Both the position numbers and the translations under genes were made by a program. A stretch of 64,000 nucleotides of DNA, from positions 4,655-68,654 of IMG/VR virus record IMGVR_UViG_3300017766_004165; one strand, written 5' to 3'. Numbering within the stretch: position 1 is the stretch's first letter; every line of letters starts with the position of its first letter. Shown in pieces: positions 4,071 through 62,481 of the stretch. The notes under the pieces were generated by a model. It saw only the letters and a list, made by a program, of their open reading frames with translations. It was not told the DNA's origin and did not search any database. Origin of the DNA: a virus.

Positions 4071-4074
4071 TTTT

Positions 4075-9112: not shown

Positions 9113-9213
9113 TTGCTCTTGGTTTTAAATTTTTAATTAATTCGCCAAAGCCTAAACTGGCTTTAACATTTTTTCTGTTTTGGCTGCGTTCTCTTTTAGC
9201 TTCAGATTGCGAT

Positions 9214-10370: not shown

Positions 10371-10938
10371 CGTTCCATAAATTAGCCATTTCTAATAGGG
10401 TTATTACTTCATTTTTGATGGTATCTCCATCAGCACCAGTATAAAGCTCTGGCCCACTTGAAAATTCTTTTTCTGGATCAAGCTGTTCTGACATAATCAA
10501 ATCAATTTTACGAACATTAACTCTCTCTGTTAAACGCATATGTTTAGTAGGATCGTTATGTTCACAATAATCAAAATAATTTTGTATAGTGGAGCTAAAA
10601 TCGCAAATAATATTCTTTTTTGGGTCATCTTTATGTATAATATAGTTCCAGCAATGGTTGTAACTCCCTTCAAGATCACTATCAAAGTGTCCTTCCCATG
10701 CTTGGACTTTTACATAATCATCTGGCATTCTCTCTTCAATAATAAAAGAGTTTAAAATAGCAGCTTGCTTACAAAAATTTCCTTGCCATTGTAAGAAGAG
10801 CTTTGGATTAGAAGCAAATAGCAATCCTGGTAAGATCTTTTTTGTAAAAACAGCCAGTATATGCTCTAGCTTCTCAAGTTGATTCATTTTTCTCATTATC
10901 AATACTTTATGAGGAAATCCTGTCGCAAATATATACAA
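10342..10938 (-). CDS. hypothetical protein
   Basis: 198-aa ORF; no motif. Confidence 0.35.
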   Translation of the reverse strand: MYIFATGFPHKVLIMRKMNQLEKLEHILAVFTKKILPGLLFASNPKLFLQWQGNFCKQAAILNSFIIEERMPDDYVKVQAWEGHFDSDLEGSYNHCWNYIIHKDDPKKNIICDFSSTIQNYFDYCEHNDPTKHMRLTERVNVRKIDLIMSEQLDPEKEFSSGPELYTGADGDTIKNEVITLLEMANLWNDETDVLHTE

Positions 10939-10973
10939 TACTTGCGACAGATCCTCTGGTTTTTCAAGGAAAA

Positions 10974-11675
10974 TTATTTTCTCCGGTCTCTAGCTCCTTG
11001 AGGCTTTCCGGTATTTGTACTTTGATCATGGTGATCTGGAAATTTAATATCTTCATTCTGAAGAATTAATAAAATTTCATTCCAACAAAAAGGTCTGGCT
11101 TCTCCAAGAATTCTTATAGCTGCATCTACTCCACAATCCATAGATTTACCATATTCAGGTAAAGAATCATGAGAGTGACCATATAAATGTAACCATCCTT
11201 TATGAGATCCATGCCATATTCTGTGAGAATAGTGACTTAAAACTACTATTTCTCCATTAATTTTTACTTCTTTGTAATGAGATACAGAAGTAAATAGTTC
11301 TTTAGCAAAAACAAATTCAGGATCGTATCCTGGAATTCCATCTACTATTTGTCCATCTACTGTGTATTTACAATTAGGAAGAGGTTTATTTTCTTCTATG
11401 TGATGATCGTGATTACCAAGAATGAGATGAATATTCTGACAATTTAGTTGTTTTCTAAATCTCCAGATGTTTTCTATTCCGCCAAAACTCCAATCTCCAA
11501 GATGATATAAAACATCATCGTGTTTTACAACTCTGTTAATTTGTTTGACAAGTTCTTGATTCATATCTTCTATTGAAGAAAAGTTTCTGTATCCACTCTT
11601 CCATCTGCTAGAGTTTTTACCAGCAATATTAGCATGACCAAAATGTGTATCTGAAGTAAAAAATATATTACTCAT
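10974..11675 (-). CDS. calcineurin-like metallophosphoesterase (paralog 3), candidate 3'-phosphatase / 2',3'-cyclic phosphodiesterase of the RNA-repair cassette
   Basis: Motifs SDTHFGH, GDWSFG, GNHDHH and GHSH; overlaps the kinase gene by 8 nt, which suggests an operon. Confidence 0.65.
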   Translation of the reverse strand: MSNIFFTSDTHFGHANIAGKNSSRWKSGYRNFSSIEDMNQELVKQINRVVKHDDVLYHLGDWSFGGIENIWRFRKQLNCQNIHLILGNHDHHIEENKPLPNCKYTVDGQIVDGIPGYDPEFVFAKELFTSVSHYKEVKINGEIVVLSHYSHRIWHGSHKGWLHLYGHSHDSLPEYGKSMDCGVDAAIRILGEARPFCWNEILLILQNEDIKFPDHHDQSTNTGKPQGARDRRK

Positions 11676-12216
11676 TTATGATTTGGTTTGGAAACTTCTC
11701 AATGACATACTTAATAATGCCAGGAAGAGAAGCTATTTGTTTATCAATATAATCAAGTTTGTTCCAACCTATTGGAGCATCTCTGACATTAACTCTTTGT
11801 TTAAGAAAATGTGCATTTGATTCAGTGAATAGTTTAAAACTAAAACTTATTTGATTTTCAGCAGTTTCATCATCATTCCAATAGTTGATAAAATCTACCC
11901 ATCTCGTAATATACGAGGGTTTAAGATTGGTATTGTCAATAATTACATCAAAACCTTTAAGTAACGCCTGGACAAAAGTATATTCTTCCATTTTGTTAAT
12001 CAAGTCTTCCGTAGGATTGAGGAATTTTGATTGGTAATAACCATCTAAAGTTCCTTTCAGGCATTGTCTAAAGTCATCTCTGTTTATCCTTACGGTTCTT
12101 GGAAAGGTTTTAATGTAATTTTTGCTCCAAGTAGATTTACCTGAACCACTGACACCAACATTAATGATTATGTTCATGGATTGTTGGAAATTTAATTGTG
12201 AATATTTTTCTTTCAA
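11668..12216 (-). CDS. pnk: polynucleotide 5'-kinase (T4 Pnk kinase-domain homolog, without the HAD phosphatase domain)
   Basis: NVGVSGSGKSTW...INRDDFRQ...IIDNTNLKP closely parallels the T4 Pnk N-terminal kinase domain (GCPGSGKSTW, NRDDYRQ, ISDTNLNP). The true start is probably the internal Met at MNIIINVG. Confidence 0.8.
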   Translation of the reverse strand: MKEKYSQLNFQQSMNIIINVGVSGSGKSTWSKNYIKTFPRTVRINRDDFRQCLKGTLDGYYQSKFLNPTEDLINKMEEYTFVQALLKGFDVIIDNTNLKPSYITRWVDFINYWNDDETAENQISFSFKLFTESNAHFLKQRVNVRDAPIGWNKLDYIDKQIASLPGIIKYVIEKFPNQIINE

Positions 12217-12469
12217 ATTTTCTGGGTACTTTCTCGGTGTTTATCCTATAAGTTTTTCCACCTTTAGGGCCAACTTGTACACCAATTATAAGTTCTCCAC
12301 TTTTAACCATATTATATAACATAGCTGAGATAGTAGAACTATTTGCTGATAATCCTCTTCTTTCAAGAAGTTTACATAAGTTGGCAGTTCCAATAGCTCC
12401 ATAAGACTTAAGTATTTCCAGGATTGCTTTCTTCCGTTGAACTTCCTTCATTGCTTTCAGTTTGATCAT
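12161..12469 (-). CDS. winged-helix DNA-binding protein
   Basis: 102 aa; pattern STISAMLYNMVKSGEL...KGGKTYRI resembles a MarR/ArsR-like recognition helix and wing; lies between the ligase and kinase genes. Confidence 0.4.
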   Translation of the reverse strand: MIKLKAMKEVQRKKAILEILKSYGAIGTANLCKLLERRGLSANSSTISAMLYNMVKSGELIIGVQVGPKGGKTYRINTEKVPRKFERKIFTIKFPTIHEHNH

Positions 12470-13772
12470 CTTCCATATTTACCATCTCTTTATCCAGAGC
12501 TTTGGACTCATATTCAAGGAATTTTTTAGATTTGATTTTAAATGTTTCAGCTTTTGGATATGAGCTGTCAATTCTTATACAAAATCCTTCCTCAACTACA
12601 TTAGGATCAAAAATAGAAGGTTTTTCAAGAAGACGGTTATAAAATATTCTGGTCATTGGTTCTTCAAAGTCTACATAAGTTTGGCCATTATCATATTTTT
12701 CAATAAACTGACCAAATGTACCCTTAAAAAATTCAGGAACTACATCTAATCCCAATTGACCACATCTGATTTTCATTTGCTCGTAAGAAAGATCTACTTC
12801 AATACCCTGAGCATTGATATTAGCAATTCTGTAAACAAATATGGTTGGTGATTCCCAGCCATAACTGTATCCACCTTGAATTTCTTCTCCAGTATATGTT
12901 TTACCACAAATCTCATAATACACTGATTCTCCCTTATTTAACTTGTCTTGAAACCAAATTTTTGCAACTTCAGACCAAAGATCTCCAGATTTAAAGAAAT
13001 GGTTCTTGTTAGGAAGTTCTTCAAAACCAACAGATTTAACACATCTTCTGCTGCATACTGCGTAATCATAATCCTCCGTAACTACTTCTACACCTAACCA
13101 TTTGGCGAGTTTAGCTTTCCAGTTAAGTTTCTTTTTTACCAGTACATTGTATGTTCTGGCAGAAGTACCATGAAGTTTATAACTTACTACAATAGGAGTA
13201 TCCAGAGTGAACTTGTGCAAATTACGCATAAGATGACCTGTATCTGGATGCTCAGGAGCTTGTTTTTTGTCAATAATCTGATCAAGAATACCTTCTTTTG
13301 CACTTTTAGGGTTACCTGATGCCTGATTTCTTTTTCTTACGTATTTTCTGCATACCTCGTATCCAGAAATTTCATTGAACTCATCACCAAGAGAAAGTCC
13401 AGATCCTCCAGAAATTATTTCAAAAGAACTAATAGGAATAATAAATCCAGAAGAAATAACACCTTTAAATTTAATAGCTTTTACTCTTCTGTTGTCTTCA
13501 AAAAATCCTTTTTGATTAGGATCTCTATTAAGATTTTCATGTCTGTATAAGTTATTTTGATGTAAGAAATCATGTGAAAGTTGACTTTCAGCAGGAAAAA
13601 ACAAATAAAGATCATCAGGATTACTGTCTTTACTTACAAGTACAGAATTACCCTGATAATTGACTTCTACTAAGTTATCAAGACCTTTTATTGGTACTTT
13701 AGTAGGAAGTTTAATGACTTGGCAAGTATAGTTCTTGCTATCATCATAAATTTTTAAAACACTTTTTGCCAT
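12408..13772 (-). CDS. RNA ligase (Rnl2-like nucleotidyltransferase) with an N-terminal extension
   Basis: YKLHGTS matches the KxHGT adenylyltransferase motif I of T4 Rnl2; C-terminal EGFCIRID resembles motif IV (EGxVxK). Confidence 0.6.
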   Translation of the reverse strand: MAKSVLKIYDDSKNYTCQVIKLPTKVPIKGLDNLVEVNYQGNSVLVSKDSNPDDLYLFFPAESQLSHDFLHQNNLYRHENLNRDPNQKGFFEDNRRVKAIKFKGVISSGFIIPISSFEIISGGSGLSLGDEFNEISGYEVCRKYVRKRNQASGNPKSAKEGILDQIIDKKQAPEHPDTGHLMRNLHKFTLDTPIVVSYKLHGTSARTYNVLVKKKLNWKAKLAKWLGVEVVTEDYDYAVCSRRCVKSVGFEELPNKNHFFKSGDLWSEVAKIWFQDKLNKGESVYYEICGKTYTGEEIQGGYSYGWESPTIFVYRIANINAQGIEVDLSYEQMKIRCGQLGLDVVPEFFKGTFGQFIEKYDNGQTYVDFEEPMTRIFYNRLLEKPSIFDPNVVEEGFCIRIDSSYPKAETFKIKSKKFLEYESKALDKEMVNMEDDQTESNEGSSTEESNPGNT

Positions 13773-19355: not shown

Positions 19356-20519
19356 TTATTCCTGATCACCTAAATCGTCAGTTTCAACTTCAATTTTGTA
19401 GTATGGGTGATTCTGCATAGCAGCTTCAACAAGTTGTTTAAGTTCATTGATATCAGAGTTACTGAATTTACCCTGTCCAGCAAAGTTTGCAACCATAGTT
19501 TCAATCTCTATCATTGCTTTTTCGATTTGCTGCTCATTACTCATACCAGAAATCATATCAACTTTATCCATAATAGCTCTTTTTTCAGAACTAAGAAGTT
19601 CTTTAGATAATTTTTCTGCTGTGGTTTTATCAACCAACAGTTCACAAGCTTTAATAAGAGCTTTATCAACAGAGCAGTTATATACCAGGCTGATAGCTCT
19701 GGCCATCATAGGTACAAAAGACAAAGTTCTGTCAGAACAAGCTTTATACGCTACATTGATGAATTTTTCCAGCTTATCAGGTGCAACTACTACTTTCTCA
19801 ATTTGTTCTTTAGTAGGAACATTGATCTTAACTTTAGTAGAATAATTCTTATCACCACCTTTATAGTATTTGATAAGTTCACCTGCTGCAAGCCTGTTAA
19901 TGGTCATTTTAAGTGCAAATCTGTCCCAGAAAGGTGAACCCACCTCATCTTTAGGAATTTCGTTACAAGTAGCAACAAAAAGCTTCCATTTACACTTCTT
20001 TTTCTCTTTACCATTAAACAGCACTCTTTCATTCATAATACCCAATAAAGCATTTCTGAGTGCAGAGCTGGCTTTATCTACTTCATTAATAATCACAGTA
20101 TCAGCTTCAGTAATATGAGAATCAATCTCATATTTATTTTCTGTTACCAGTTTTTCCAGGTTAACTACACCTTTAATTTCAGAAGACTTTGTACCTTCAT
20201 CTGTTTCCAGCATAAATACACCTTCCTCATTGAAATGTTGAATATGATCAGGATCAGTAAGATCAAACATTCCTTTAGTATAGTCAGTTACGATTTTAGT
20301 CTTACCTGTACCTGGAGGGCCAACAAATAAGATACCCAGTTGTAAAGCTTCTGCTAAAGACAAAAGTCTGAAAGCTTCTTCTTTACCCAACAGGGATGTT
20401 TCAAAGGTTCTGTGACCTTTTATTTCGATTGATTTTTTCATGTTAATAGGGTTTCCAACTTCAATTTGGGTTTTACCTTTTTCAAGGTCTTTTTTTACTG
20501 CTTCAGCTATTTGGGTCAT
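19356..20519 (-). CDS. AAA+ ATPase (MoxR/CobS-like)
   Basis: Walker A LFVGPPGTGKTK and a DE-containing Walker B region; 387 aa. Confidence 0.65.
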   Translation of the reverse strand: MTQIAEAVKKDLEKGKTQIEVGNPINMKKSIEIKGHRTFETSLLGKEEAFRLLSLAEALQLGILFVGPPGTGKTKIVTDYTKGMFDLTDPDHIQHFNEEGVFMLETDEGTKSSEIKGVVNLEKLVTENKYEIDSHITEADTVIINEVDKASSALRNALLGIMNERVLFNGKEKKKCKWKLFVATCNEIPKDEVGSPFWDRFALKMTINRLAAGELIKYYKGGDKNYSTKVKINVPTKEQIEKVVVAPDKLEKFINVAYKACSDRTLSFVPMMARAISLVYNCSVDKALIKACELLVDKTTAEKLSKELLSSEKRAIMDKVDMISGMSNEQQIEKAMIEIETMVANFAGQGKFSNSDINELKQLVEAAMQNHPYYKIEVETDDLGDQE

Positions 20520-33763: not shown

Positions 33764-34606
33764 TTACTGTTTATTTACATTAAAGAAAGGAACTGCTCCA
33801 CTTCCACCCATTATAGTACTGGGCAGTACGCCATTCCATTTCAATGCTTTCGTATATTCAACAAGTTGAGGTGATTCTCTTAAAGCTTCATTTTTAGCTC
33901 TCATAGAGTTGGCTTCAGCTAAAGCTCCCATCATAGTTACAACAGAATCTTTTCTGGCATTAATAATATCAATTTCAGCATTGGCCTGTGTTACTTGTTG
34001 CTGAGCTTTAGCAGCCTGAGCTTCTTGTACAGCTTTTGCTTTATTACTAATAGCAGCTTTTAAGTTTGGATCAGGTATAAGATTGGCTGTAAACTGGGTA
34101 ACCTGAAAAAACGGTTTCAGATCATGATTCAGTTTATTTAAAATTGCTGCATCATAACCTGCTTGGTTATTCAAAATACTATCAACAGTGTATGTATTCG
34201 TAACTTCTCTTATAGCTGTGGTCATGGATGTTTTTAAGAATCCATTTTCCAAATTACTAAGAGAAACTCTGTATTTTTGAAACATTTCACCTACATTACC
34301 TGCTTCCAGGTTATAGTTAAATGTCGGATGTACAGTGAATACAGTTCCACCTTTTGATGGTACTTCGTAAGACTCATACTCTTTGTGTTGCTGGAAAGTC
34401 GGAAATTCATAAACTTTTTGAGCCAATCTCCAGTAGAAACAGAAACCTGTTACATACTCAGTTTTAGCTACACCCTGGTTTCCACCAGTCATGTTTACTT
34501 TAATACCTACGTTACCAGCATCAATTCTTTCACATCCTACAAAGGCTGAACCCAAAATAGCAAAGAAAGCGATTGCTCCCAAAATCAATTTAAATTTCGT
34601 ACTCAT
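33764..34606 (-). CDS. SPFH/band-7 domain lipoprotein (HflK/C-like)
   Basis: N-terminal signal peptide with a lipobox-like FVGC; C-terminal AQAAKAQQQVTQANAEIDIINARKDS...AEANSMRAKNEA is typical of the SPFH Ala/Glu-rich coiled coil. Confidence 0.5.
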   Translation of the reverse strand: MSTKFKLILGAIAFFAILGSAFVGCERIDAGNVGIKVNMTGGNQGVAKTEYVTGFCFYWRLAQKVYEFPTFQQHKEYESYEVPSKGGTVFTVHPTFNYNLEAGNVGEMFQKYRVSLSNLENGFLKTSMTTAIREVTNTYTVDSILNNQAGYDAAILNKLNHDLKPFFQVTQFTANLIPDPNLKAAISNKAKAVQEAQAAKAQQQVTQANAEIDIINARKDSVVTMMGALAEANSMRAKNEALRESPQLVEYTKALKWNGVLPSTIMGGSGAVPFFNVNKQ

Positions 34607-36675: not shown

Positions 36676-36756
36676 TGGCCTCCGAGGGACTCGAACCCCC
36701 ACGCTGTAAGCACTGGCTTCTTAGACCAGCGTGGCTACCAATTACACCAGAAGGCC
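36676..36756 (-). tRNA. type II tRNA, Leu-like (hand-fold anticodon AAG, identity uncertain)
   Basis: Revcomp folds as acceptor GGCCTTC/GGAGGCC, D-loop TAATTGGTAGC, anticodon arm CTGGT-CUAAGAA-GCCAG, 12-nt variable arm, T-arm GGGGG-TTCGAGT-CCCTC, discriminator A. Resembles bacterial tRNA-Leu. Confidence 0.55.
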
Positions 36757-36827
36757 ATAAAAACATCAGGAACAGGTATGAAATAGGGATCTCCAACCTG
36801 TTTTACTTTCCCAAAACCTGATATTAG

Positions 36828-36916
36828 CGGAAGACAAAGGATTCGAACCTTCACTCCCCTTTCAGGGAGTCCAAGTTAGCAACCTGGTGCAGCAAACCAT
36901 ATCTGGCCTATCTTCC
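36828..36916 (-). tRNA. tRNA-Ser (anticodon GCT)
   Basis: Acceptor GGAAGAT/GTCTTCC; anticodon arm CCAGG-TTGCTAA-CTTGG; long variable hairpin CTCCC-TGAAAG-GGGAG; T-loop TTCGAAT; discriminator G. Resembles E. coli tRNA-Ser. Confidence 0.65.
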
Positions 36917-37159
36917 AGCACTGTTTAATTTACCGGGAAACAGTCAAAGCCGTACTTTTCTTTTGTTCAAACGGTTAAAACGCCGTTTCACCAGAGAAAG
37001 CTTAACTGGTGCTTATAAGAGGGTCTCTGGAGATTCCATCATGACCATAATCAGGATGCTCTTGTCCAGCTTTAATAAGGTTATAACACAGCACAAACAT
37101 TGGTACTGCACAAATACTGCAAATTTTTAATACTTCCCAAAACATAATTCTGATTTTAG

Positions 37160-37567
37160 TGGAGATGAGGGGAATCGAACCCCTGTCCAAACAGTGTAAA
37201 GTGCTGATAGTTGTCTTATATGCTTACCCAATTTCTACTGAGAATATCAATTTGCTTTTTAACTGTCTCAAATTGCTAATGGGACATACCATTGTTTTTA
37301 AGGAAAACTATGACAATAAATGTAAACCTTCTGCTAAATTAACTTGTATAGCTTCAAGGTTGATTATGCAAAGCAAAGCTCAGCACCAACTTCTTCTGCC
37401 TCGTAAGACAGAGAGTTAAGAAGAGAATCAATGTTCCCGTTCTCACCAACTGTAATGTTAGATTTCTCTACATTTGTTTTTGAGTAACATTCGTTAAGGA
37501 AGTATAATACTCATCCTTCCTGCATACCTATCAATCCTATTCATTGCTGTCAAATCCGAGCATCCCC
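37160..37567 (-). ncRNA. ssrA: tmRNA-like gene (ssrA)
   Basis: The 3' end has T-arm AGGGG-TTCGATT-CCCCT followed by CATCTCC-A. About 400 nt upstream on the same strand, GGGGATGCTCGGATTTGACAG matches the tmRNA 5' consensus GGGGxUGAUUCUGGAUUCGACGG and pairs 7/7 with the 3' CATCTCC. An internal frame GGT GAG AAC... (tag starting G-E-N, ending ...CFA then TAA) is a possible tag ORF. Confidence 0.5.
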
Positions 37568-37570
37568 AGG

Positions 37571-37807
37571 TTAAATTGAGTGTCTGCCTATTTGACGATA
37601 ACACTTATTAATTTCTTGTTCAAGTTCTACTTTTCTATTTCTTAACCCTTTTTGTAACATTTCTTGTTCAAACTCTGGCAAAGCAAAATATTTATGATTA
37701 GGCTTTTTGAATTCCTGCTGAGTTGTTACTACTTGTTGAAGTTCTATTAAACACTTTTCACGTATTTTTATATACTTTTCAACAATTTCTTGTTTTGTTG
37801 GTTGCAT
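37571..37807 (-). CDS. hypothetical protein
   Basis: 78-aa ORF ending 4 nt before the tmRNA 5' end. Confidence 0.3.
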   Translation of the reverse strand: MQPTKQEIVEKYIKIREKCLIELQQVVTTQQEFKKPNHKYFALPEFEQEMLQKGLRNRKVELEQEINKCYRQIGRHSI

Positions 37808-38277
37808 AAAAATTGGTTTTATTAAGAAATGATCTTCCAGTGCGTTTTAATAATATCTTCTTCTATCTGCCTTTCTGTGTATGAAAAATTCTCCTCTATT
37901 GTGTCAAAATCTCCTATTTTAGATCTGAAATAAACTTGTTTTTCTTCATCAAAATACACAATTTTAAATTGAATGTTTTCATTAGTTGCACTAAAGATTT
38001 TACCTACGAATCCATGTTGTTGCTTTTTTGAACCTGTAATTTTGAGTTTTAACATAAAAATTTATTAATTCTCAACTAAAGAGTTTCTTACCCTTTTACT
38101 TACCTGCTTATCTTTAGTCAGCGGACTTAAGGAATTGTCCCTTAAATCATAACTATTAATACGAGTTTCTGTGATGAGATCCGTAGGGCATCACATACAA
38201 GGATACAGGTTACTCTTTAGATGAGAAATTAAAATAGGAAGTTGCAAATTTAGTGTTTCAGGATGAAACAACCAAAT

Positions 38278-39030
38278 TTAATTTATCTTTTTTCTTCTTT
38301 GATACCATTTTCTGTTTCTTTCCATTTCCAGCTCTTTTTCAAGATCTTTCACTTTTTGCTCCAAAGTTCTGGTATCTTTGTCTGTTTTGAAGGCTTCAAA
38401 ATCTTCTTCAAGCTTTTTATAATCTTTAATGAAAGCTTCATTAAGATCTTTGATTTGTTCTTCATACTTAGCTATAAGATCTTTTTTGGCCTTTTCTTGG
38501 TTGATCTGAGCATGAGTAACAGTATCATTTAAAGCGGAAAGCTGCTTTTTGTAACCATCAATTTCACTAGCAACCCTTTGTTCAACTTTCTGGCTAATAT
38601 CTGCCAGCACATCATCAAAGTTTATGTACTCTGTGGTTGTAACAGTTTCCATTTCAGGAGTTGAGTTAATAGGAGAATTGAATTTGTATCTTTCCAATAA
38701 GGCAGCTATTTCTTCCACAGCGTAATGAGAATGTCTTTCATGACCATCTGACCTAACTTTATAATAAATGGTTTGAGCTAATTCTCTAAAACGGCCATCA
38801 TAACGTCCTTTAACATGAGTGTTCATGTTCATGTGAAATTCATAACTGACCGTAGGTTTTGGTATTTGTTTTTCAATTACCTTAACTGTTCTCTTATCAG
38901 CTTTTACTTTGACAATTTCTTCATCTTTTTCCTTGATAATTGATTCTCTATCAGTTATCGTAGAATATGCTTTTTTAAGATCTTCCCGAATCTTGTCTAA
39001 TTCAGAGAGATCCATAGTCACTTGTCCCAT
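38278..39030 (-). CDS. coiled-coil hypothetical protein
   Basis: 250 aa, Glu/Lys-rich heptad-like C-terminus. Confidence 0.35.
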   Translation of the reverse strand: MGQVTMDLSELDKIREDLKKAYSTITDRESIIKEKDEEIVKVKADKRTVKVIEKQIPKPTVSYEFHMNMNTHVKGRYDGRFRELAQTIYYKVRSDGHERHSHYAVEEIAALLERYKFNSPINSTPEMETVTTTEYINFDDVLADISQKVEQRVASEIDGYKKQLSALNDTVTHAQINQEKAKKDLIAKYEEQIKDLNEAFIKDYKKLEEDFEAFKTDKDTRTLEQKVKDLEKELEMERNRKWYQRRKKIN

Positions 39031-39056
39031 AATTGTATTAGTATTAAAAGTGATTA

Positions 39057-39644
39057 TTATTTCTTTTTCTTTACTGCTTTTTTAGCTGGAACAGCTCTTT
39101 TGGCTTTTTCAATAACGTGTTTGTTATTGTCTCTTTTTCTAACTTTTTCAAGAATTTCCTGAATACTGTTAGCTTCAATAGAGGCCAATGTTACTTTTCT
39201 GGTAATGTCAGCTCTGTTAAAGGTTCTGCCACTTTCTTTCTTAGGCTTATCAGCAGTTTTTTCTTTTCTAGTTAATTTACCCTGGTTATAGTTATCAATT
39301 AACGTATCCAAAGTAGTTGCTTCAGTTTCCAAAGTACCTTTAGCTTCTTTACCCCAGTAATTAGTAAAGAAATCAGAACCAGTATATTGAAGTTCAATTC
39401 TTGTTTGAATTGATAAACCAGAAAGTTCTTTTCTGATAGCTTTATTTTTAGCAATAAGAAAATCTCTTTCTTTTTTGGTAAGACCATCCTTGTCTTTTTT
39501 CTCAACAGGTGGCTTTTCGGTTAATTTATCTTTTGTACTCCAGAACTTTTTATGTTCTTTTTCCAAAGTATCAACTATGGCTTCTATTTGAAATTCTGTT
39601 AAATTCATTTTGAATTTTGTTTTTGTTTTTGATGATGTTCCCAT
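39057..39644 (-). CDS. Lys-rich basic protein
   Basis: 195 aa, KKK-rich termini. Confidence 0.3.
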   Translation of the reverse strand: MGTSSKTKTKFKMNLTEFQIEAIVDTLEKEHKKFWSTKDKLTEKPPVEKKDKDGLTKKERDFLIAKNKAIRKELSGLSIQTRIELQYTGSDFFTNYWGKEAKGTLETEATTLDTLIDNYNQGKLTRKEKTADKPKKESGRTFNRADITRKVTLASIEANSIQEILEKVRKRDNNKHVIEKAKRAVPAKKAVKKKK

Positions 39645-39888
39645 TTTCTTTCTTCTGCTTTAGAAGCAAAGACAGGTTTGGCTTTTGGTTGTTTTTCAGC
39701 TTTTGGTAAACTGTTTTCTTTTTGAAGTTGGGTCGCCAATTTAACCCTTTCTTTCTTAGCTCCTACTCCACTACCGAATCTGAGATCCAATTTTTGAATT
39801 TTTTGTTGAGTAGTGAGTTTTTTATGCTCAGAATTGCGTTCCTGGGCTTCTTTTTGCCTGGTTTCTAAATTCTTCATTGCTTTATTTT

Positions 39889-40608
39889 TTAAGGGTTTTT
39901 ACTTGGTTGTACTTCTTGCACAGTTGAAGCATTGATCAGTTTAGGAAGTATTTTAAACATTCCTGTTTTCTTTTTAGGAGTTGGTACTGAAGTTACTGCT
40001 ACTGAAGCAGGAACAATAGGATTTGAAGCTGTATGTCCATTTCCTCTTAAAATATGAGACATTTGTTGCTTCATGGCATCTTCCTGAGAAGTTCTTTCAT
40101 TAATATAATAATGAGGAACTTGAGGCTCATCCAGCTTATAGTTATCCCAGTCTTTTTTGTACCCTTCATCCAGGTAATTCTGAAGTGAATTGATGTATCT
40201 TTTATGGATTGCATGATAGGTTTGTTCAGAGATTACTTTTTGATTAGTAACTATAAACTTACCATCTTTGATAAAACCTATTCTGTGTTCCCAGGCTGGA
40301 TGTGCTTTTACTTCTTTAACAGCTTCAATGCCATTATCAGGGTCAGCTTCCACACCAGGAACTTCTACAACATTCCACAACTTATGAAAATGTACAAATT
40401 GTGTAACGTCTTGTATCTGGGGTCTTACCAGCAGTGTCCATTCTGAGGTATCCAGAACATCAAAATCACCAACTTTTTTGGTTTCTTTCTTCTTAAATTT
40501 GAAGATTGGTGTTTCTTCTGACATAATGTTTGTATTAGTTGTTAATAATGCGTTCATATCCCTTTTTGATCTTTTCACCCATCTTTTTATTGATGAACTT
40601 ATAAGCAT
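39889..40608 (-). CDS. hypothetical protein
   Basis: 239-aa ORF; the true start is probably the internal Met near 40524. Confidence 0.35.
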   Translation of the reverse strand: MLISSSIKRWVKRSKRDMNALLTTNTNIMSEETPIFKFKKKETKKVGDFDVLDTSEWTLLVRPQIQDVTQFVHFHKLWNVVEVPGVEADPDNGIEAVKEVKAHPAWEHRIGFIKDGKFIVTNQKVISEQTYHAIHKRYINSLQNYLDEGYKKDWDNYKLDEPQVPHYYINERTSQEDAMKQQMSHILRGNGHTASNPIVPASVAVTSVPTPKKKTGMFKILPKLINASTVQEVQPSKNP

Positions 40609-40864
40609 CTTCCAGGGTTTGAAATCCGTGTCTTTTAGTATTTCCAGTAGTATTCATTTTACCATAATGAATAGATACCGTAAAATTTGTTTGCTCCGAA
40701 TTTCCTAATCTGTGTAATTGGATGATATAGAATTTGTTATGACCAGCTTCTTTATGTTCCAATTTTACATGATCTATACCAACATTTCTTTTCTTTTCAA
40801 AGCTCAGTTTAAAACCGAACCCTGAAAAAGTATCAGGTTGGCGTCCAGTCTTTTTTGAGGCCAT
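40535..40864 (-). CDS. WGR-domain protein
   Basis: HNKFYIIQLHRLGNSEQTNFTVSIHYGKMNTTGNTKRHGFQTLEDAYKFINKKMGEKIKKGY fits the WGR pattern (FY.IQL... W/H-G-R/K... KxxKGY). Confidence 0.5.
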   Translation of the reverse strand: MASKKTGRQPDTFSGFGFKLSFEKKRNVGIDHVKLEHKEAGHNKFYIIQLHRLGNSEQTNFTVSIHYGKMNTTGNTKRHGFQTLEDAYKFINKKMGEKIKKGYERIINN

Positions 40865-41594
40865 ATTCTTCTTTTAGTTTATTTAATAATGTGACGACTA
40901 ATCTTTCTCTTTTAGGATGAAATCCTGTTTCTGGGAATTCAATGTAAAACAAACAACCCAGATTTTTCTTAGAACGAGCAAGCATTGTTCCTCCTACAAG
41001 CTGAATCAATCCTACTAAATGAGTAGCCTCTGAGTTAGATTTGGCCCATCTTATAAAATTGTACACTTGTTGATATTCTTCATCAGTTTGTTTTAGAATA
41101 CCTGATGCTAATGCTTGAACATAATCATTATCCTTCTTGTACTTCATTTCAGGATACTTATCATTATACTTACAATCATCAAACATGACCCATTGAACAT
41201 ATCTGTATAAGTAAGCAGGTATTCTTGGTAATTTTGGCAGAACTTCATCAACAAACCAGTTAGATTGATCTATTCTAGCTTGTATAGTAACATTGATAGT
41301 TTCTGCATTATCAATATCATAACCATTACCACTGTTATTTATAAAGACTGTAAGATTGTGCTTATCATCTCCTGTGGTAATGTCAAAATGTCCCTGCTTC
41401 TGAAGATGCTCAATCGCCTTCCTAATGCTAATGGGTGCATAGGGCGATCCATCAACGGTAAGCGATTCTTTTTCTTCTGGTACAGATTGCTGGACTTGAG
41501 GTTGAGCTTTAGTGTTTGCTTGTTTTGGTTTGGCACTAGTGCGCTTCTTCTTCCTTGTTTTTGAAGCTGAATTAGGTATTCTTCTTGTTCCCAT
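40833..41594 (-). CDS. hypothetical protein with a basic N-terminus
   Basis: 253 aa; N-terminal KTRKKKRTSAKPK. Confidence 0.35.
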   Translation of the reverse strand: MGTRRIPNSASKTRKKKRTSAKPKQANTKAQPQVQQSVPEEKESLTVDGSPYAPISIRKAIEHLQKQGHFDITTGDDKHNLTVFINNSGNGYDIDNAETINVTIQARIDQSNWFVDEVLPKLPRIPAYLYRYVQWVMFDDCKYNDKYPEMKYKKDNDYVQALASGILKQTDEEYQQVYNFIRWAKSNSEATHLVGLIQLVGGTMLARSKKNLGCLFYIEFPETGFHPKRERLVVTLLNKLKEEYGLKKDWTPT

Positions 41595-41784
41595 TGGCTC
41601 ATAATTTAAAAATTTTAAAAAATCTATTAATGCTTCGTTGATGAATGGTCACCTCAGCATTAATAGATCATTCACTAATACAAAACTAACAAAATAGTTT
41701 GAGAAGGGTATTCGCCTATACGAACCTGGTGATCGGAAACTCTCCGATGTCCTCCTCAAATTAGCATTTAAGCTAACTTATTCG

Positions 41785-41858
41785 TGGGGCTGCTAAGACT
41801 CGAACTTAGGACTCCCACATTAAAAGTGTGGTACTCTAACCAACTGAGTTACAACCCC
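41785..41858 (-). tRNA. tRNA-Lys (anticodon TTT)
   Basis: GGGGTTG acceptor, D-arm ACTC-AGTTGGTTA-GAGT, anticodon arm CCACA-CTTTTAA-TGTGG, T-arm CTAAG-TTCGAGT-CTTAG. Confidence 0.75.
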
Positions 41859-41870
41859 GAAAATGGTGAG

Positions 41871-41944
41871 TGGGCTGTGGTAGACTCGAACTACCAACCT
41901 CCTGAGTATCAGTCAGGGACTCTAACCAATTGAGCTAACAGCCC
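41871..41944 (-). tRNA. tRNA-Ile (anticodon GAT)
   Basis: GGGCTGT acceptor, anticodon arm CCTGA-CTGATAC-TCAGG, T-arm GGTAG-TTCGAGT-CTACC. Confidence 0.75.
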
Positions 41945-41948
41945 AGCC

Positions 41949-42560
41949 TTATGATTCTTTAAGCTTCTTTATAAGATGTTTAGCCATTGGTTTCATTTCA
42001 GATAATTCCATTAGAGCCAAAATAGGTGCTACTGTCTCTAAATTAAAATTAACTAAAGTTCTACCTGAAGCTTTGTCATTAAAAGTATCACAATCTGAAG
42101 GATCAGAAAACACATAATAGTTTCTACAAGCTGATGGTCTTACTGGATAAATGCTACAAGAGTTATATTTATCCAAGAACACACATCTTCTATGTGGAGA
42201 TAAAATGTATTCTTTATCATCCTTAATAAGAGCTTGTTTCTCAAGTAGTTCTAATTCTTTAGGTTCAAATTCTAAACCTTGCTCTTTCATATATTCAAGA
42301 ATAGTAATTATTTCCCATTCCATAGTTGCTACTTGAATATAACAACAATGAGCGCAGCCCTTTTTACAAGATGGCTGGTCTTTGTTAACAAAAGAGTTTT
42401 TATTGATGTCATCAATTACATCATACATAGCTAAAACTTTTTCTGCAATAGGCTCATTATTACTGAGTTGAGTTATATAGCTACTCTTTGCATAATTTAA
42501 AAAATTTGCTTGATCGTTAGAAAACTCTAAATCTTCATAATTACCTAAAATTTCAGGCAT
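41949..42560 (-). CDS. CxxxCxxCC Fe-S/zinc-binding domain protein (UPF0153/YkgJ-like)
   Basis: CKKGCAHCC cluster plus further conserved Cys residues. Confidence 0.4.
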   Translation of the reverse strand: MPEILGNYEDLEFSNDQANFLNYAKSSYITQLSNNEPIAEKVLAMYDVIDDINKNSFVNKDQPSCKKGCAHCCYIQVATMEWEIITILEYMKEQGLEFEPKELELLEKQALIKDDKEYILSPHRRCVFLDKYNSCSIYPVRPSACRNYYVFSDPSDCDTFNDKASGRTLVNFNLETVAPILALMELSEMKPMAKHLIKKLKES

Positions 42561-42619
42561 AAAAGTAGTTTTAAAAATTTTTAGAAACTTGATTTTCTAT
42601 TTTAATGTGTAATGATTTG

Positions 42620-42693
42620 TGATCCGAACAGGAGTCGAACCTGTAACCTATTGCTTAGAAGGCAATTGCTCTATCCAGTTGAGCTATCAGATC
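42620..42693 (-). tRNA. tRNA-Arg (anticodon TCT)
   Basis: GATCTGA acceptor, D-arm GCTC-AACTGGATA-GAGC, anticodon arm ATTGC-CTTCTAA-GCAAT, T-arm ACAGG-TTCGACT-CCTGT. Confidence 0.75.
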
Positions 42694-42845
42694 AAATTTC
42701 CTCCACCATCCCCCCCGAAGAAGTACGAGTCTACATCTCCCAGAAACACTCTATGAGGTTCATCGTATGCTATGAAACTTACTCCTTCGGCGGGGAGAGG
42801 CTTCGGAAATTCCTTACTTTTTCTAGGAAAAAATAAAGAAAACCA

Positions 42846-43484
42846 TTATCTTCCAGATTGGCCCACGTTCAATGTGCCAATAGAAGCTGCTTTAGCTCTT
42901 TCAACACCTGCAACTCTTTCATCTTCCAAAGCTTTCTTCCAATAACCAACCTGTTCAGTCAGGAATTTAACCTGGCTCTCCAGTTGGGTAATTTTGGCTG
43001 TGTTTTCAGCTTCTTTCTTTTCAAAGGTCATTTTAGCCAGTGCATCAGCATTGTCATGATCTTTCTTCATTGCGGAAGTTGCTGCATTAACAGCTTTGCT
43101 GATGTTTTCAGACATCTTTGTAGTGGCTTCATCCAGAGAATCATGCAGCTCATCCATTTTTGTTTCAAGAATAGCTACCAGCTTATTTCTCTGCAAATAA
43201 TTATCTACAAAAGCTTTCTGATCAGCATCATAAGCTTGCTGAAGCTCAATTTTGTTTTGGGCCACTTTGTTGGTAAGATCCTGCTTTAAAGCACCAATCT
43301 TATCTTCCAGATTTACTACTTCCAGTGTGCCACTGTTCAATGTAGTCTTAAGTTTTTCAACTTCAGGAGCTACTTGTAACAAAGCTTTTACTGCTGCTTC
43401 CATACGTGAAGCTGCTGAACCAATGATGATCTCAGTGGTTTTGTTGCCCTTTTTAGCTGGGACTTTTGCTTGTACTTCTGACAT
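42846..43484 (-). CDS. coiled-coil hypothetical protein
   Basis: 212 aa, Ala/Lys/Glu-rich. Confidence 0.35.
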   Translation of the reverse strand: MSEVQAKVPAKKGNKTTEIIIGSAASRMEAAVKALLQVAPEVEKLKTTLNSGTLEVVNLEDKIGALKQDLTNKVAQNKIELQQAYDADQKAFVDNYLQRNKLVAILETKMDELHDSLDEATTKMSENISKAVNAATSAMKKDHDNADALAKMTFEKKEAENTAKITQLESQVKFLTEQVGYWKKALEDERVAGVERAKAASIGTLNVGQSGR

Positions 43485-43522
43485 TTGTGTGTCGTTTTAG
43501 TATTAATGAATAAAAAATATAG

Positions 43523-43595
43523 CGGAGGAAACATGGATTCGAACCAGTGACACTAGGTGCTTCACACCTATGCTCTACCGCTGAGCTACTCCTCC
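43523..43595 (-). tRNA. tRNA-Phe (anticodon GAA), atypical T-stem
   Basis: GGAGGAG acceptor, D-arm GCTC-AGCGGTA-GAGC, anticodon arm TAGGT-GTGAAGC-ACCTA. The T-stem needs a bulged nucleotide (ACTGG-TTCGAAT-CCAT(G)T) and position 37 is G. Confidence 0.55.
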
Positions 43596-43653
43596 TCCCG
43601 TTTTACTTATCCTCTGAACGAGGGAAAACGGATCGCAAAAAAGAATTCTTAGT

Positions 43654-43724
43654 ATGCCCCAATAGGATTTGAACCTATATCCACCCCTTCAATGGGGCAA
43701 TCCTGGCCATTAGACGATGGGACT
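43654..43724 (-). tRNA. tRNA-like gene, Gln/Glu-type D-arm, aberrant anticodon loop (possibly Gln-TTG or a pseudo-tRNA)
   Basis: D-arm TCGTCTAATGGCCAGGAT resembles Glu/Gln tRNAs; T-arm ATAGG-TTCAAAT-CCTAT. The anticodon region is CCCC-ATTGAA-GGGG (6-nt loop) and the acceptor has an A1-A72 mismatch. Confidence 0.4.
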
Positions 43725-43791
43725 CAGGGCTTTTAACAACCATCAACTGTTAGCTCATGGCTCAAAAACCCAATCACAAGAAAAGCTTGTG

Positions 43792-44088
43792 TTACTTCCT
43801 GGCAATGTAATGCACTCCCTTGAAGCTTAATTCAGTAAGAGTTTGAGGATTTACGAATCTCACCTCTTTTGCAACTGTGGAATATACTTTAATATACCCC
43901 ATCTTGTTATCTTGTACTTTGTACCTGATACCATTGATCGTATGAGGTTTACCATCTTTGCCAATATGGGTAGTTGTCATAAACTTACCTTTGGTATCAG
44001 CGATGGTTGTGAGCATTTTGGTTCTTGTAGTTTTTACCACAGGAAAACTCTTGTTGTGCTTTGTAAGAGCGGGTTGCTTTTTAGGCAT
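43792..44088 (-). CDS. hypothetical protein
   Basis: 98-aa ORF between tRNAs. Confidence 0.3.
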   Translation of the reverse strand: MPKKQPALTKHNKSFPVVKTTRTKMLTTIADTKGKFMTTTHIGKDGKPHTINGIRYKVQDNKMGYIKVYSTVAKEVRFVNPQTLTELSFKGVHYIARK

Positions 44089-44122
44089 TTTGCTTGATTT
44101 TAATGAATGAATAAATGATAAG

Positions 44123-44195
44123 ATGTCATAGCAAGATTCGAACTTGCGACCTCACCCTAACAATGGGTTGCTCTAACCAACTGAGCTATATGACA
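44123..44195 (-). tRNA. tRNA-Thr (anticodon TGT)
   Basis: Close to E. coli tRNA-Thr overall: TGTCATA acceptor, anticodon arm AACCC-ATTGTTA-GGGTG, T-arm GCAAG-TTCGAAT-CTTGC. U at position 37 is unusual. Confidence 0.65.
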
Positions 44196-44268
44196 TCACT
44201 GAGTTGTGTAGGACACTGTCTTCAACGACAGGCCTACTACTCGCTGTTTTAAAGGAAACAGCTAACTA

Positions 44269-44628
44269 TTATTTTAATGCACCTTCCATAAACTTATCAA
44301 ACTCAATGTCTGATGTATGGTCATATGGATATGGAGTGCTGCATACTCTGGTTTTCTGAATAAGTTTACCTTCTTCACCTGGTTTAATAAGAGCAGCACA
44401 AGAAACACATGGTATAAAACCAGAATTGTATCCCTCTTGTATAGGTGTTACTTTAGATGCTTCTATAATTTGCTGCATATCACCAGTTTTTATTGCATTA
44501 TGTATCTTTTCAGCTCTTTGAATAAAAGCTTGGATACAACATACTGGATAACCAAAAAAGACTCCCATGAGTTGCATTCCTATAAGTTTTGAAGATAAAT
44601 CTTGATCTTCTTGACAGTTTTGACACAT
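44269..44628 (-). CDS. hypothetical Cys-containing protein
   Basis: 119-aa ORF. Confidence 0.3.
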   Translation of the reverse strand: MCQNCQEDQDLSSKLIGMQLMGVFFGYPVCCIQAFIQRAEKIHNAIKTGDMQQIIEASKVTPIQEGYNSGFIPCVSCAALIKPGEEGKLIQKTRVCSTPYPYDHTSDIEFDKFMEGALK

Positions 44629-44641
44629 AATAAAAATTTAG

Positions 44642-44713
44642 TAGCCCCACAGAGAATCGAACTCTGATTTACTGGTCGAAAACCAGTCGTCCTAGCCGTT
44701 AGACGACAAGGCC
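44642..44713 (-). tRNA. tRNA-Glu (anticodon TTC)
   Basis: D-arm TCGTCTAACGGCTAGGACG, anticodon arm ACTGG-TTTTCGA-CCAGT, T-arm CAGAG-TTCGATT-CTCTG. The acceptor is rich in G-U pairs. Confidence 0.6.
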
Positions 44714-46973: not shown

Positions 46974-47456
46974 TTAAACTTTTGAAAGATAAACGTAGGC
47001 TTTGTGGTATTTTTCAATACGAGCAAAGTCAGCTTTGGTTAATCCTTTTAACCTGAAGGGTTGCGAATTATGTTCTAAATCAGCCATTTTTACGGCCCTC
47101 GCATCTTCATTTGTGGATATTTCTGCAATATACTCTTCATATGTTTTTACAGTTGGATCATGCGTAAGCAACATTAAAGGTATTATAATAGCATCACCAA
47201 AACCTTTTCTTCTCAGGTCTGCAAAATCCCAATCAGTGTCTTCTACTAAATCATGTAAAATTCCGATAATTCTACGTGTATCAGTAGTTTGTTTATCCAT
47301 AACATAAAGACAATGAAGGATATATGGCTCTCCTGATTTGTCCAGCTTATCTTTAAAAGCTTTAGCAACAATGCTAATAGCATGAGCTAATTGCTTTTTT
47401 GAGGACATGATCTTTGGTTTTAACGTGAACGTATATGAGATCCAGGTTCGTTGCAA
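46974..47456 (-). CDS. RelA/SpoT-family HD-domain (p)ppGpp hydrolase (small alarmone hydrolase, Mesh1-like)
   Basis: SGEPYILHCLYVM, GILHDLVEDT and VKMADLEHN parallel SpoT segments GEPYITHP, LLHDVIEDT and IKLADRTHN. The probable start is the internal Met (MSSKK, about 47408). Confidence 0.65.
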   Translation of the reverse strand: MQRTWISYTFTLKPKIMSSKKQLAHAISIVAKAFKDKLDKSGEPYILHCLYVMDKQTTDTRRIIGILHDLVEDTDWDFADLRRKGFGDAIIIPLMLLTHDPTVKTYEEYIAEISTNEDARAVKMADLEHNSQPFRLKGLTKADFARIEKYHKAYVYLSKV

Positions 47457-47788
47457 GAAGTTTTCAATACAATGTTAAGATCTTCTTTATTATAGACATA
47501 TTCTTCCTGGAATAAGTCTTTATAATAAGATTTGAATTTTGAAATGTCTTCTTCAATTGTCTTAGTGAAAGTTTTACTAACACGAAGACTATCAATTGTT
47601 TCCCACCAAGAATCTTTATCACTTTTAAGATACTTTTTAATAAAAACCTCTGGCTGGTGATCATCAAGATTTTTTTGAAGTCTTGCAATCTGTAATTTGA
47701 AAGCATTTTTCAAATTTACAACTTTTTTATCTATTTCTGGTGTAAGCTCTGAAGCAGCTTCAAGAAATAAATTTTTAATATCTTTCAT
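47420..47788 (-). CDS. hypothetical protein
   Basis: 122-aa ORF. Confidence 0.3.
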   Translation of the reverse strand: MKDIKNLFLEAASELTPEIDKKVVNLKNAFKLQIARLQKNLDDHQPEVFIKKYLKSDKDSWWETIDSLRVSKTFTKTIEEDISKFKSYYKDLFQEEYVYNKEDLNIVLKTSCNEPGSHIRSR

Positions 47789-47867
47789 TATCTTGGTTTT
47801 AATAATTTAAAAATAAAGCTGCATTAAAATTAATCAATGCAGCTTTTATTACAAATTTAAATCTTGT

Positions 47868-48563
47868 TTAGAAATTCACACCAGCAGTAGAGCCAGAGCT
47901 TGAGGATACAGACTGAGAAACAACTCCCATCTGTTTTCTGATCTCTGATGCACTGTTGCCTACTGTTACCAGACATTTAGTGTGATCCAGGCCCATTTCA
48001 GTACAAGCTTCCTGGAAATAATGTGGTTGACCCACACCCAGCATATTGATTGTAAATGAACTGGCCCAGGCTTCATTACGTCTGAGATCTTCAACGAGCT
48101 TTTTGATCTTTGTTGCTGCACCACTGGATGATGAATTATCTTCACCATCAGTTGATATGAAAATGGCTGTTCTCACATCAATACCCTGTTCTTCAAGATC
48201 TTTTCTGTACGCAATTGCGTGTTCAAGACCTTGTAATACAGCATCATACAATGCTGTACCTCTGCCGGTATTATGCACATCAAAATAATCATCCTGCACA
48301 TTCAGGATAGGCATAAAGCCTGATTTATGTTCTACTTTCTCACAAAAAGTGATTGCTTTTACAACAATATCATCTTTTCTGTGAGAGTTTTTAAGATCCT
48401 GGATGAATACATCTTTGGCAATAGTATTCATAGTTGTTTCATATGAACTAATGCTGGGAGATACGTCATTAATGACAATAAACATAACTACCATAGATGT
48501 CATATTAGCCAAAGAATTAGGATCAAAGTTTTGGCTGTTATTAAAGTTTTGGAAACCTTCCAT
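47868..48563 (-). CDS. VWA-domain protein
   Basis: IVINDVSPSI (DxSxS MIDAS) and FISTDGEDN (TDGxxN) motifs. Confidence 0.45.
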   Translation of the reverse strand: MEGFQNFNNSQNFDPNSLANMTSMVVMFIVINDVSPSISSYETTMNTIAKDVFIQDLKNSHRKDDIVVKAITFCEKVEHKSGFMPILNVQDDYFDVHNTGRGTALYDAVLQGLEHAIAYRKDLEEQGIDVRTAIFISTDGEDNSSSSGAATKIKKLVEDLRRNEAWASSFTINMLGVGQPHYFQEACTEMGLDHTKCLVTVGNSASEIRKQMGVVSQSVSSSSGSTAGVNF

Positions 48564-62270: not shown

Positions 62271-62342
62271 AGCGGGGTAGAGCAGCGGTAGCTCGAAAGC
62301 CTCATAAGCTTTAGGTCGTGAGTTCGATCCTCACTCCCGCTA
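62271..62342 (+). tRNA. tRNA-Met (anticodon CAT; elongator Met or Ile2-type)
   Basis: AGCGGGG/TCCCGCT acceptor, D-arm GAGC-AGCGGTA-GCTC, anticodon arm AAAGC-CTCATAA-GCTTT, T-arm GTGAG-TTCGATC-CTCAC. Confidence 0.75.
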
Positions 62343-62481
62343 CTCCGAGGGTGATCTGGGAATATAAGTGACGTTGGAATACCAGACTTGCGTGTATTTC
62401 TTTTTTCGTAAAAGTAAATATATTTTCTTTACACGACCCTTAGAACACAAAATAGAAACAAATTAAAATAAAATAAAGTCT

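Follow-up and report, generated by a model that had tools for sequence, protein, structure and literature searches.

Why a phage should carry a stand-alone enzyme of the alarmone hydrolase type, and on which nucleotide that enzyme acts, are questions raised by a small HD-domain hydrolase gene in an uncultured virus. The gene lies on the minus strand of a stretch of 64,000 nucleotides (nt) from IMG/VR record IMGVR_UViG_3300017766_004165 (positions 4,655 to 68,654 of that record), hereafter the window, to which all coordinates refer unless a contig is named. A prediction made from the DNA letters (the original prediction) had described its product as a phage-encoded SpoT/Mesh1-like small alarmone hydrolase (SAH). 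Here we establish the family membership of the protein, its intact active site, its fold and its orphan context. We suggest that it is probably an HD 3'-pyrophosphohydrolase of the Aph1/PbcSpo type, an orphan in the early/metabolic block of a large uncultured phage, where it would act as a counter-defence against toxic alarmone synthetases.

A compact hydrolase of the Aph1/PbcSpo branch

The open reading frame (ORF) that contains the gene spans 46974..47456 and would encode 160 amino acids (aa) if its TTG start were used. An ATG at 47408, positioned 11 nt past the stop of the upstream ORF (47420..47788), gives 144 aa instead. The identical 144-aa sequence is a public metagenome gene call (P0001, 100% identity), the 144-aa gene is also called on Logan contig L001, and most close homologues are 143-145 aa long. 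Since the TTG start overlaps the upstream ORF by 37 nt, and since 144 aa matches both the public call and the lengths of the homologues, the sequence comparison places the true coding sequence (CDS) at 46974..47408. The gene span up to 47456 given in the original prediction is thus 48 nt too long at the 5' end. A plus-strand ORF that overlaps the gene (47002..47307) is a shadow ORF.

The search that the original prediction had proposed as a check, against the HD_4 model, was run and proved equivocal by itself. The Pfam HD_4 model scored 18.7 bits, below its gathering cut-off of 27.2 bits, and TIGR00691 (spoT_relA), which was built for long RelA/SpoT homologue (RSH) enzymes, gave a weak N-terminal match of 31 bits against a cut-off of 499. 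PF13328 annotations occur on roughly half of the homologues listed, mostly on ones below 60% identity. Both HD_4 and TIGR00691 are poorly fitted to the compact Aph1/PbcSpo branch. Because HD_4 stayed below its threshold, the decisive test moved to searches of PDB sequences, PHROGs and folds.

In these searches the family was clear. The whole protein is matched by phrog_990, a 'metal-dependent phosphohydrolase' (PHROGs, E 5e-43), and its best PDB relative is 7SMG, the Bacteroides caccae (p)ppApp hydrolase Aph1 (E 2.9e-22, residues 7-142 of 144). Behind it in the PDB sequence search came the hydrolase domains of long Rel, RelA and SpoT proteins and Mesh1, at E values of about 1e-5 or worse and mostly over the N-terminal half only. 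Homologues in the databases numbered 250 at E <= 1e-5. The Aph family has been defined by homology to the C-terminal region of Aph1, Y90-E143, which excludes the HD motif (PMC10083569). Aph1 residues 90-142 aligned with the window protein at 44% identity over 52 residues (BLASTP, E 1e-11).

A single domain spans the entire 144-aa protein, which is without synthetase, TGS or ACT domains. An AlphaFold2 model built from 65 homologues (mean pLDDT 94.5, pTM 0.89) is consistent with a compact eight-helix fold that lacks helix 0 and helix 9 of ppGpp hydrolases, and the Aph fold is likewise described as compact and without the extra helices of those enzymes (PMC10083569). When the model was compared with the PDB by Foldseek, the four chains of 7SMG ranked first, with template modelling (TM) scores of 0.89-0.93 when normalised to the target, root-mean-square deviations of 1.0-1.6 Å and 35-37% identity. 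Mesh1, Rel, SpoT, PaSAH and RelH ranked after them with target-normalised TM scores of 0.18-0.70. For Mesh1 and PaSAH these were 0.63-0.70, and for the Mesh1, PaSAH and RelH chains of 172-193 residues 0.54-0.70. All of the top 50 structural matches were RSH hydrolase domains or an SAH-like protein (4YF1, Lmo0812).

Two other identities were tried. A deoxynucleoside triphosphate (dNTP) triphosphohydrolase of the SAMHD1 or Dgt type, the best match that would have counted against the original prediction, was found neither among the 18 PDB sequence matches nor among the top 50 fold matches. A generic HD phosphohydrolase was rejected by the PDB sequence and fold searches. Judged by its sequence and predicted fold, the protein belongs to the Aph1/PbcSpo branch of the RelA/SpoT hydrolase superfamily and not to the Mesh1/SpoT branch. 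The proposal of a stand-alone, phage-encoded SAH of the RSH HD superfamily is therefore upheld by the PHROGs match, the 7SMG match and the fold, while its assignment as SpoT/Mesh1-like holds for the superfamily but not for the subfamily.

Relative to the hydrolase domains of Mesh1, SpoT and Rel, and to PaSAH and RelH, the protein shares the HD superfamily, the metal and catalytic motifs and a similar fold (query-normalised TM 0.74-0.83). Those enzymes, however, are only 18-27% identical to it, are longer, with at least nine helices, carry Arg where the window protein has D23, and hydrolyse ppGpp or are promiscuous.

Active-site and specificity residues

Residues were mapped by a HMMER alignment to 7SMG and by a MAFFT alignment of 67 sequences, including Aph1 and gp220 of Salmonella phage PVP-SE1; the same positions were also tabulated over 166 loci. 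The three motifs on which the original prediction was built, SGEPYILH, HDLVEDT and KMADLEHN, are present on the DNA. The His and Asp ligands on which it hinged are also in place, as H32, H52-D53, E56-D57, D110 and N114. All 67 aligned sequences share H32, H52, D53, E56, K107, D110 and N114, which are nearly invariant over the 166 loci as well, and 66 of the 67 have Asp at position 57. In Aph1, mutation of the HD motif abolishes function (PMC10083569).

Six residues separate Aph enzymes from ppGpp hydrolases: D24, R96, D116, R119, K133 and Y134 in Aph1 numbering (PMC10083569). The window protein matches four of the six (D23, R119, K133 and Y134). D23, R119 and Y134 are invariant in the 67-sequence alignment and almost invariant over the 166 loci, and K133 is Lys in 63 of 67. 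Y134 of Aph1 has been proposed to contact the pyrophosphate (PMC10083569). From the alignment, both functionally validated specificity residues, D23 (Aph1 D24) and R119 (Aph1 R119), are present.

By analogy with characterised family members, H32, H52-D53 and D110 would hold a Mg2+ or Mn2+ ion and E56-D57 would activate water, so that the enzyme would strip the 3'-pyrophosphate from an adenosine nucleotide. An adenine-type pocket, to which D23 and R119 belong and in which K133 and Y134 lie close to the active site, would select (p)ppApp as substrate. By analogy with PbcSpo enzymes, a second substrate may be the 3'-pyrophosphorylated A76 of tRNA-CCA.

An orphan gene and its probable role

Alarmone hydrolases of this type may be encoded beside a cognate synthetase toxin. 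Pfam and PHROG scans of the window ORFs of at least 75 aa over the 64 kb, which for the Pfam toxin scan were concatenated into pseudo-proteins, found no RelA_SpoT synthetase and no MuF domain. On five related contigs, the precomputed Pfam annotations of the flanking regions included no synthetase domain. Of the ORFs that flank the gene, those of 122, 91 and 114 aa are too small for such a toxin, and the others are of another type (vWA-like, that is, like von Willebrand factor A, and isochorismatase-like).

A control locus, L118, does have this arrangement. Its hydrolase gene, whose product is 39% identical, lies about 200 nt downstream of the gene for a 545-aa MuF protein (4144..5781 on L118), and the C-terminus of the latter matches the alarmone synthetase SaSAS (8VX3, E 2e-10, phmmer against the PDB). 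A local profile of the L118 toxin domain, iterated over 167 sequences, recovered 24 of the 166 loci. All 24 share a near-identical prophage arrangement with a MuF toxin upstream of an Aph-type hydrolase gene and about 200 nt between the two ORFs. The other 23 are L112, L119-L123, L125-L127, L129, L138-L142, L144, L149, L155, L157, L158 and L164-L166. Against the window the profile retrieved nothing (best E 0.66, an unrelated protein), although it is narrow and divergent synthetases could escape it. The undetected synthetase domain of L118-type MuF toxins is a blind spot for routine annotation.

The hydrolase gene is thus an orphan copy with no adjacent synthetase toxin in the 64 kb, like that of gp220 in PVP-SE1. 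This sets it apart from Aph1, whose gene, in a temperate phage, lies downstream of that for a MuF-fused (p)ppApp synthetase and provides immunity to it, whereas the window gene stands in an early/metabolic block. As proteins the two are otherwise alike. They fall in the same length class (144 aa and a deposited chain of 149 aa), are 35-37% identical over the whole protein, share the HD, ED, D110 and N114 catalytic set and the D24, R119, K133 and Y134 signature, and by the model share a compact helical HD fold (TM 0.91). Aph1 forms a tetramer (PMC10083569).

The closest characterised functional analogue, by sequence, is the SAH of PVP-SE1. Along its full length, PVP-SE1 gp220 (YP_004894027) shares 45% identity with the window protein; its identity to Aph1 is 38%. 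It is annotated as 'metal-dependent phosphohydrolase' and is 169 aa long as annotated, with short N- and C-terminal extensions. Its gene, too, stands alone in the genome of a large lytic phage, where it adjoins a thymidylate kinase and is surrounded by early genes and genes of nucleotide metabolism. The phage lineage and the neighbouring genes nevertheless differ from those of the window. The PVP-SE1 SAH, assigned to the PbcSpo subfamily, neutralised all five of the toxic small alarmone synthetases (toxSAS) that it was tested against in Escherichia coli: CapRel, PhRel2, FaRel2, PhRel and FaRel (PMC7229694).

ATfaRel of Cellulomonas marina, the type IV antitoxin of FaRel, is placed in the same subfamily as the PVP-SE1 SAH, and we liken it to the window protein by description and not by sequence. 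It degrades the product of the toxin rather than binding the toxin, and it cross-neutralises all toxSAS classes (PMC7229694). ATfaRel has also been used in vitro to remove pyrophosphate from toxSAS-modified tRNA (bioRxiv 2024.07.05.602228). Unlike the orphan window gene, it belongs to a bicistronic toxin-antitoxin locus in a bacterium. For keeping CapRel and FaRel2 in check, the PaSpo SAH of phage SSU5 is in routine use. Orphan SAHs carried by phages are an established category.

During infection, the window enzyme would reverse the action of toxic alarmone synthetases of the host. Its targets would be the products of tRNA pyrophosphokinases of the CapRel, PhRel and FaRel2 type and of (p)ppApp synthetases of the FaRel, Tas1 and Apk type. 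Translation and ATP pools would remain intact and abortive infection would fail. Analogy with characterised family members makes this reading, both in substrate preference and in counter-defence role, the one that we consider probable.

Several points weigh against it. The reading presumes a host that carries a toxSAS or CapRel. Neutralisation by the PVP-SE1 enzyme was seen under over-expression in E. coli and not during phage infection (PMC7229694). Moreover, gp220 appears to be the SAH that was tested, as judged from its being the only homologue match in the PVP-SE1 genome. The window covers about half of the genome size in relatives (contigs of 120-140 kb), and a phage-borne toxin could lie elsewhere. 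The negative Pfam scans for a toxin are weak, because Pfam RelA_SpoT misses the genuine MuF-fused synthetase of L118: for this toxin Pfam shows only MuF and no RelA_SpoT at E <= 1e-3. Finally, the Aph signature is not matched at two of its six positions, where the window protein has E96 and Q116 in place of R96 and D116 in Aph1. Arg at position 96 is kept in 70 of 80 bacterial copies against 23 of 56 viral ones in the table of 166 loci, and gp220 has Gly there but keeps D116. Gln at position 116 occurs in 22 of the 67 aligned sequences, all of them near relatives of the window protein, while most other members have Asp. Because E96 and Q116 replace R96 and D116, and since Q116 is specific to the near clade, substrate preference may differ from that of Aph1.

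One way in which it may differ would make the enzyme one arm of a tRNA-protection toolkit. Its pocket, with Q116 and E96, would be tuned to the 3'-pyrophosphate that CapRel-, FaRel2- and PhRel-type defences put on tRNA-CCA, and it would not primarily be a (p)ppApp scavenger. The enzyme may then act together with the 10 tRNA genes of the phage, its transfer-messenger RNA (tmRNA) and a set of RNA ligase, kinase and phosphoesterase genes, on the basis only of their co-occurrence within the 64 kb. We regard this version as possible but unlikely.

Quite unlikely, in our assessment, is a (p)ppGpp hydrolase that collapses the stringent response of the host and keeps transcription and translation running for phage production. 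The original prediction had offered this role beside the detoxification of alarmone-synthetase toxins. The enzyme does share its superfamily with the hydrolase domains of SpoT and Rel, sources name it '(p)ppGpp synthase/HD superfamily hydrolase', and the altered positions 96 and 116 might loosen specificity. However, D23 stands where Rel enzymes carry their guanine-stacking Arg, as reported for the equivalent Aph1 D24 (PMC10083569) and as found in the alignment with Bacillus subtilis Rel (8ACU). Together with R119 it forms the pair that excludes ppGpp in Aph1. Among the Aph1 variants, ppGpp hydrolysis is gained by the double mutant D24R+R119A; the others tested, including the R96A and D116R single mutants, were more than 100-fold slower on ppGpp than this double mutant (PMC10083569). 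The absence of the extra helices from the predicted fold also argues against a ppGpp hydrolase. Among purified Aph homologues, ppApp was hydrolysed by 12 of 12 and ppGpp modestly by two (PMC10083569). Because D23 and R119 are present and the family has this specificity, toxin detoxification is favoured and a blunting of the ppGpp response is disfavoured.

The same gene could instead provide immunity against a (p)ppApp-synthetase toxin of the phage itself, such as a virion-packaged MuF-fused Apk, encoded outside the window. Aph1, the founding member, has such a setting, as do the 24 loci with a synthetase-like MuF toxin upstream, and the incomplete coverage of the genome noted above leaves room for such a gene. 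In the described pairs, however, the hydrolase gene always adjoins the toxin gene or lies just downstream of it, whereas the window gene sits within a long same-strand early/metabolic block in 64 kb that yielded no MuF or synthetase domain. Its closest relatives on long contigs, L002 and L004, keep a different conserved neighbourhood. The nearest characterised relative is moreover the orphan PVP-SE1 enzyme, at 45% identity, against 36-39% for the toxin-linked ones. Together these observations make an immunity role improbable.

Least probable is a different phosphorylated substrate (another 3'-phosphorylated or immune signalling nucleotide, as with Mesh1 on NADPH and 3'-phosphoadenosine 5'-phosphosulfate, PAPS), with the altered positions 96 and 116 as its mark. 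In its favour, the fold search also brought up MESH1 structures with NADPH and PAPS, Q116 is typical of the near clade where Asp dominates elsewhere, and nucleotidyltransferase-like and isochorismatase-like genes are among the conserved neighbours. Against it, similarity to Mesh1 is far lower than to Aph1 (22-23% identity, target-normalised TM 0.63), the core Aph pocket residues are intact and the Aph1 clade has no known member that uses such substrates.

The hydrolase family is common. Homologues were found in 256 of 50,697 phage records (tblastn), all below 60% identity and mainly in phages of Aeromonas, Streptococcus, Klebsiella, Cronobacter, Escherichia and Salmonella. Pattern scans added at least 449 relatives in IMG/VR, with up to 54% identity among the matches listed, and at least 347 in bacterial and archaeal genomes of many phyla, with 35-46% identity among the matches listed. 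The view that such enzymes occur in a few phages was therefore an understatement. The nearest relatives, at 60-89% identity, all come from metagenomes.

With the window, one more uncultured lineage of large phages, tRNA-rich, of about 33% GC and with the gene on contigs that reach about 120-130 kb, joins the carriers of an orphan adenosine-3'-pyrophosphohydrolase. This supports the view that alarmone-synthetase defences (CapRel, toxSAS and (p)ppApp toxins) are widespread enough to select a common phage countermeasure. It also suggests that 'ppGpp hydrolase' or 'stringent-response modulator' is probably the wrong label for the window protein, while its natural E96 and Q116 variants offer a modest way to test which residues of the Aph signature matter. 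Experiments have already characterised the enzyme family as well as its orphan form in phages, so the locus opens no new question.

Genomic neighbourhood and other features of the window

The window is phage DNA with a long minus-strand block and a GC content of about 33%. Its replication and recombination genes include a family-A DNA polymerase, a DnaB-like helicase, a primase, a superfamily 2 (SF2) helicase, RecA and a flap endonuclease. Genes for a class II ribonucleotide reductase and a dUTPase represent nucleotide metabolism, and further genes encode a MoxR ATPase, an RNA ligase and several metallophosphoesterases. A nucleotide search of the 45-50 kb region against the 50,697 phage records gave no match, and the DNA polymerase shares no more than 47% identity with the polymerases of Pseudomonas phages O4 and HHBS10_2. 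Sequence comparison thus indicates a phage without a cultured close relative. The features of the hydrolase gene and of the rest of the window are listed in Table 1.

Directly upstream of the hydrolase gene lies the 122-aa ORF, which has no assigned function. Beyond a terminator-like hairpin follow vWA-like (231 aa), isochorismatase-like (262 aa), kinase-like (539 aa) and PP2C-like (protein phosphatase 2C) genes. Downstream are two small ORFs of 91 and 114 aa whose products look membrane-bound or secreted. The hairpin is a consensus match and may mark the boundary of the hydrolase transcription unit; the region holds 11 terminator-like sites against 3.3 expected.

In the two closest long contigs, L002 and L004 (72% and 73% identity), the gene order is PP2C-like, kinase-like, 262-263 aa, 230-231 aa and hydrolase, and the 122-aa ORF is missing. 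The more distant viral relatives L005 and L006 have quite different neighbours. On L005, whose hydrolase is 55% identical, the hydrolase gene has an IS1595 transposase downstream and, about 4 kb upstream, a reverse transcriptase gene (RVT_1, 3177..4121 on that contig).

Neither the 262-aa nor the 231-aa neighbour had a match in the PDB by sequence, and the same search identified the 156-aa neighbour as a generic cytidylyltransferase-fold protein. A nicotinamide adenine dinucleotide (NAD) salvage module formed by the neighbours was unsupported by these results.

Table 1. Features of the hydrolase gene and of other parts of the window
Feature	Coordinates	Strand	Remarks
Hydrolase CDS, Aph1/PbcSpo type	46974..47408	-	ATG 47408; stop codon 46974..46976
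In-frame 5' extension from TTG (47456), probably untranslated	47409..47456	-	Overlaps ORF 47420..47788; homologue lengths
SGEPYILH, residues 25-32	47313..47336	-	Codon-by-codon check on DNA
Codons D23-K24-S25-G-E-P-Y-I-L-H32	47313..47342	-	Putative base-recognition loop (D23 = Aph1 D24) and first metal-ligand His
Codons H52-D53-L-V-E56-D57 of HDLVEDT (residues 52-58)	47238..47255	-	HD and ED catalytic motifs
KMADLEHN, residues 107-114	47067..47090	-	Codon-by-codon check on DNA
Codons K107-M-A-D110-L-E-H-N114-S-Q116-P-F-R119	47052..47090	-	Predicted metal ligand D110, ribose-binding N114, variant Q116, specificity R119
Codons K133-Y134	47007..47012	-	Aph signature pair
Terminator-like hairpin	47815..47846	-	13-bp stem then T-run, upstream of the 122-aa ORF; consensus match only
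Cassette kept upstream of the hydrolase in L002 and L004	47868..52916	-	Cytidylyltransferase-like (156 aa), 113-aa ORF, PP2C-like phosphatase, 539-aa, 262-aa and 231-aa genes
231-aa vWA-like protein	47868..48563	-	vWA/MIDAS-like (metal-ion-dependent adhesion site) motif seen by eye
tmRNA	37157..37567	-	Rfam RF00023, 74.2 bits, E 5.6e-27, full-length model
tRNA genes, 10	36676..44713; 62271..62343	-; +	Small ORFs interspersed; one with odd anticodon loop at 43652..43725
Possible RNA-repair set	8375..13772	-	
RNA ligase	12408..13772	-	In the RNA-repair set
AAA_33/zeta-toxin-like kinase	11668..12177	-	In the RNA-repair set
Calcineurin-like phosphoesterases, three	8375..9112; 9214..9984; 10974..11675	-	In the RNA-repair set
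dATP/dGTP diphosphohydrolase N-terminal domain	4075..4896	-	PF18909, E 6e-30
RecA	2987..4006	-	Pfam RecA, 409 bits
SPFH/Band-7 membrane protein	33764..34606	-	
MoxR-type AAA ATPase	19356..20519	-	

The 539-aa kinase-like protein of the cassette shows weak matches to YrbL and RIO. The tag peptide of the tmRNA is predicted by ARAGORN to be GENGNIDSLLNSLSYEAEEVGAELCFA, which is unusual in its length and ending. The tRNA types are Leu-aag, Ser-gct, Lys-ttt, Ile-gat, Arg-tct, Phe-gaa, Thr-tgt, Glu-ttc and Met-cat, besides the tRNA with the odd anticodon loop. The dATP/dGTP diphosphohydrolase domain is of a type tied to phage nucleotide-pool editing; Pfam scans of the window gave no adenylosuccinate-synthetase-like partner for this gene. 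RecA is full-length and of the bacterial type, and is not a UvsX-like phage recombinase. The vWA-like gene upstream of the hydrolase could be a partner of the MoxR ATPase, though the two are 27 kb apart.

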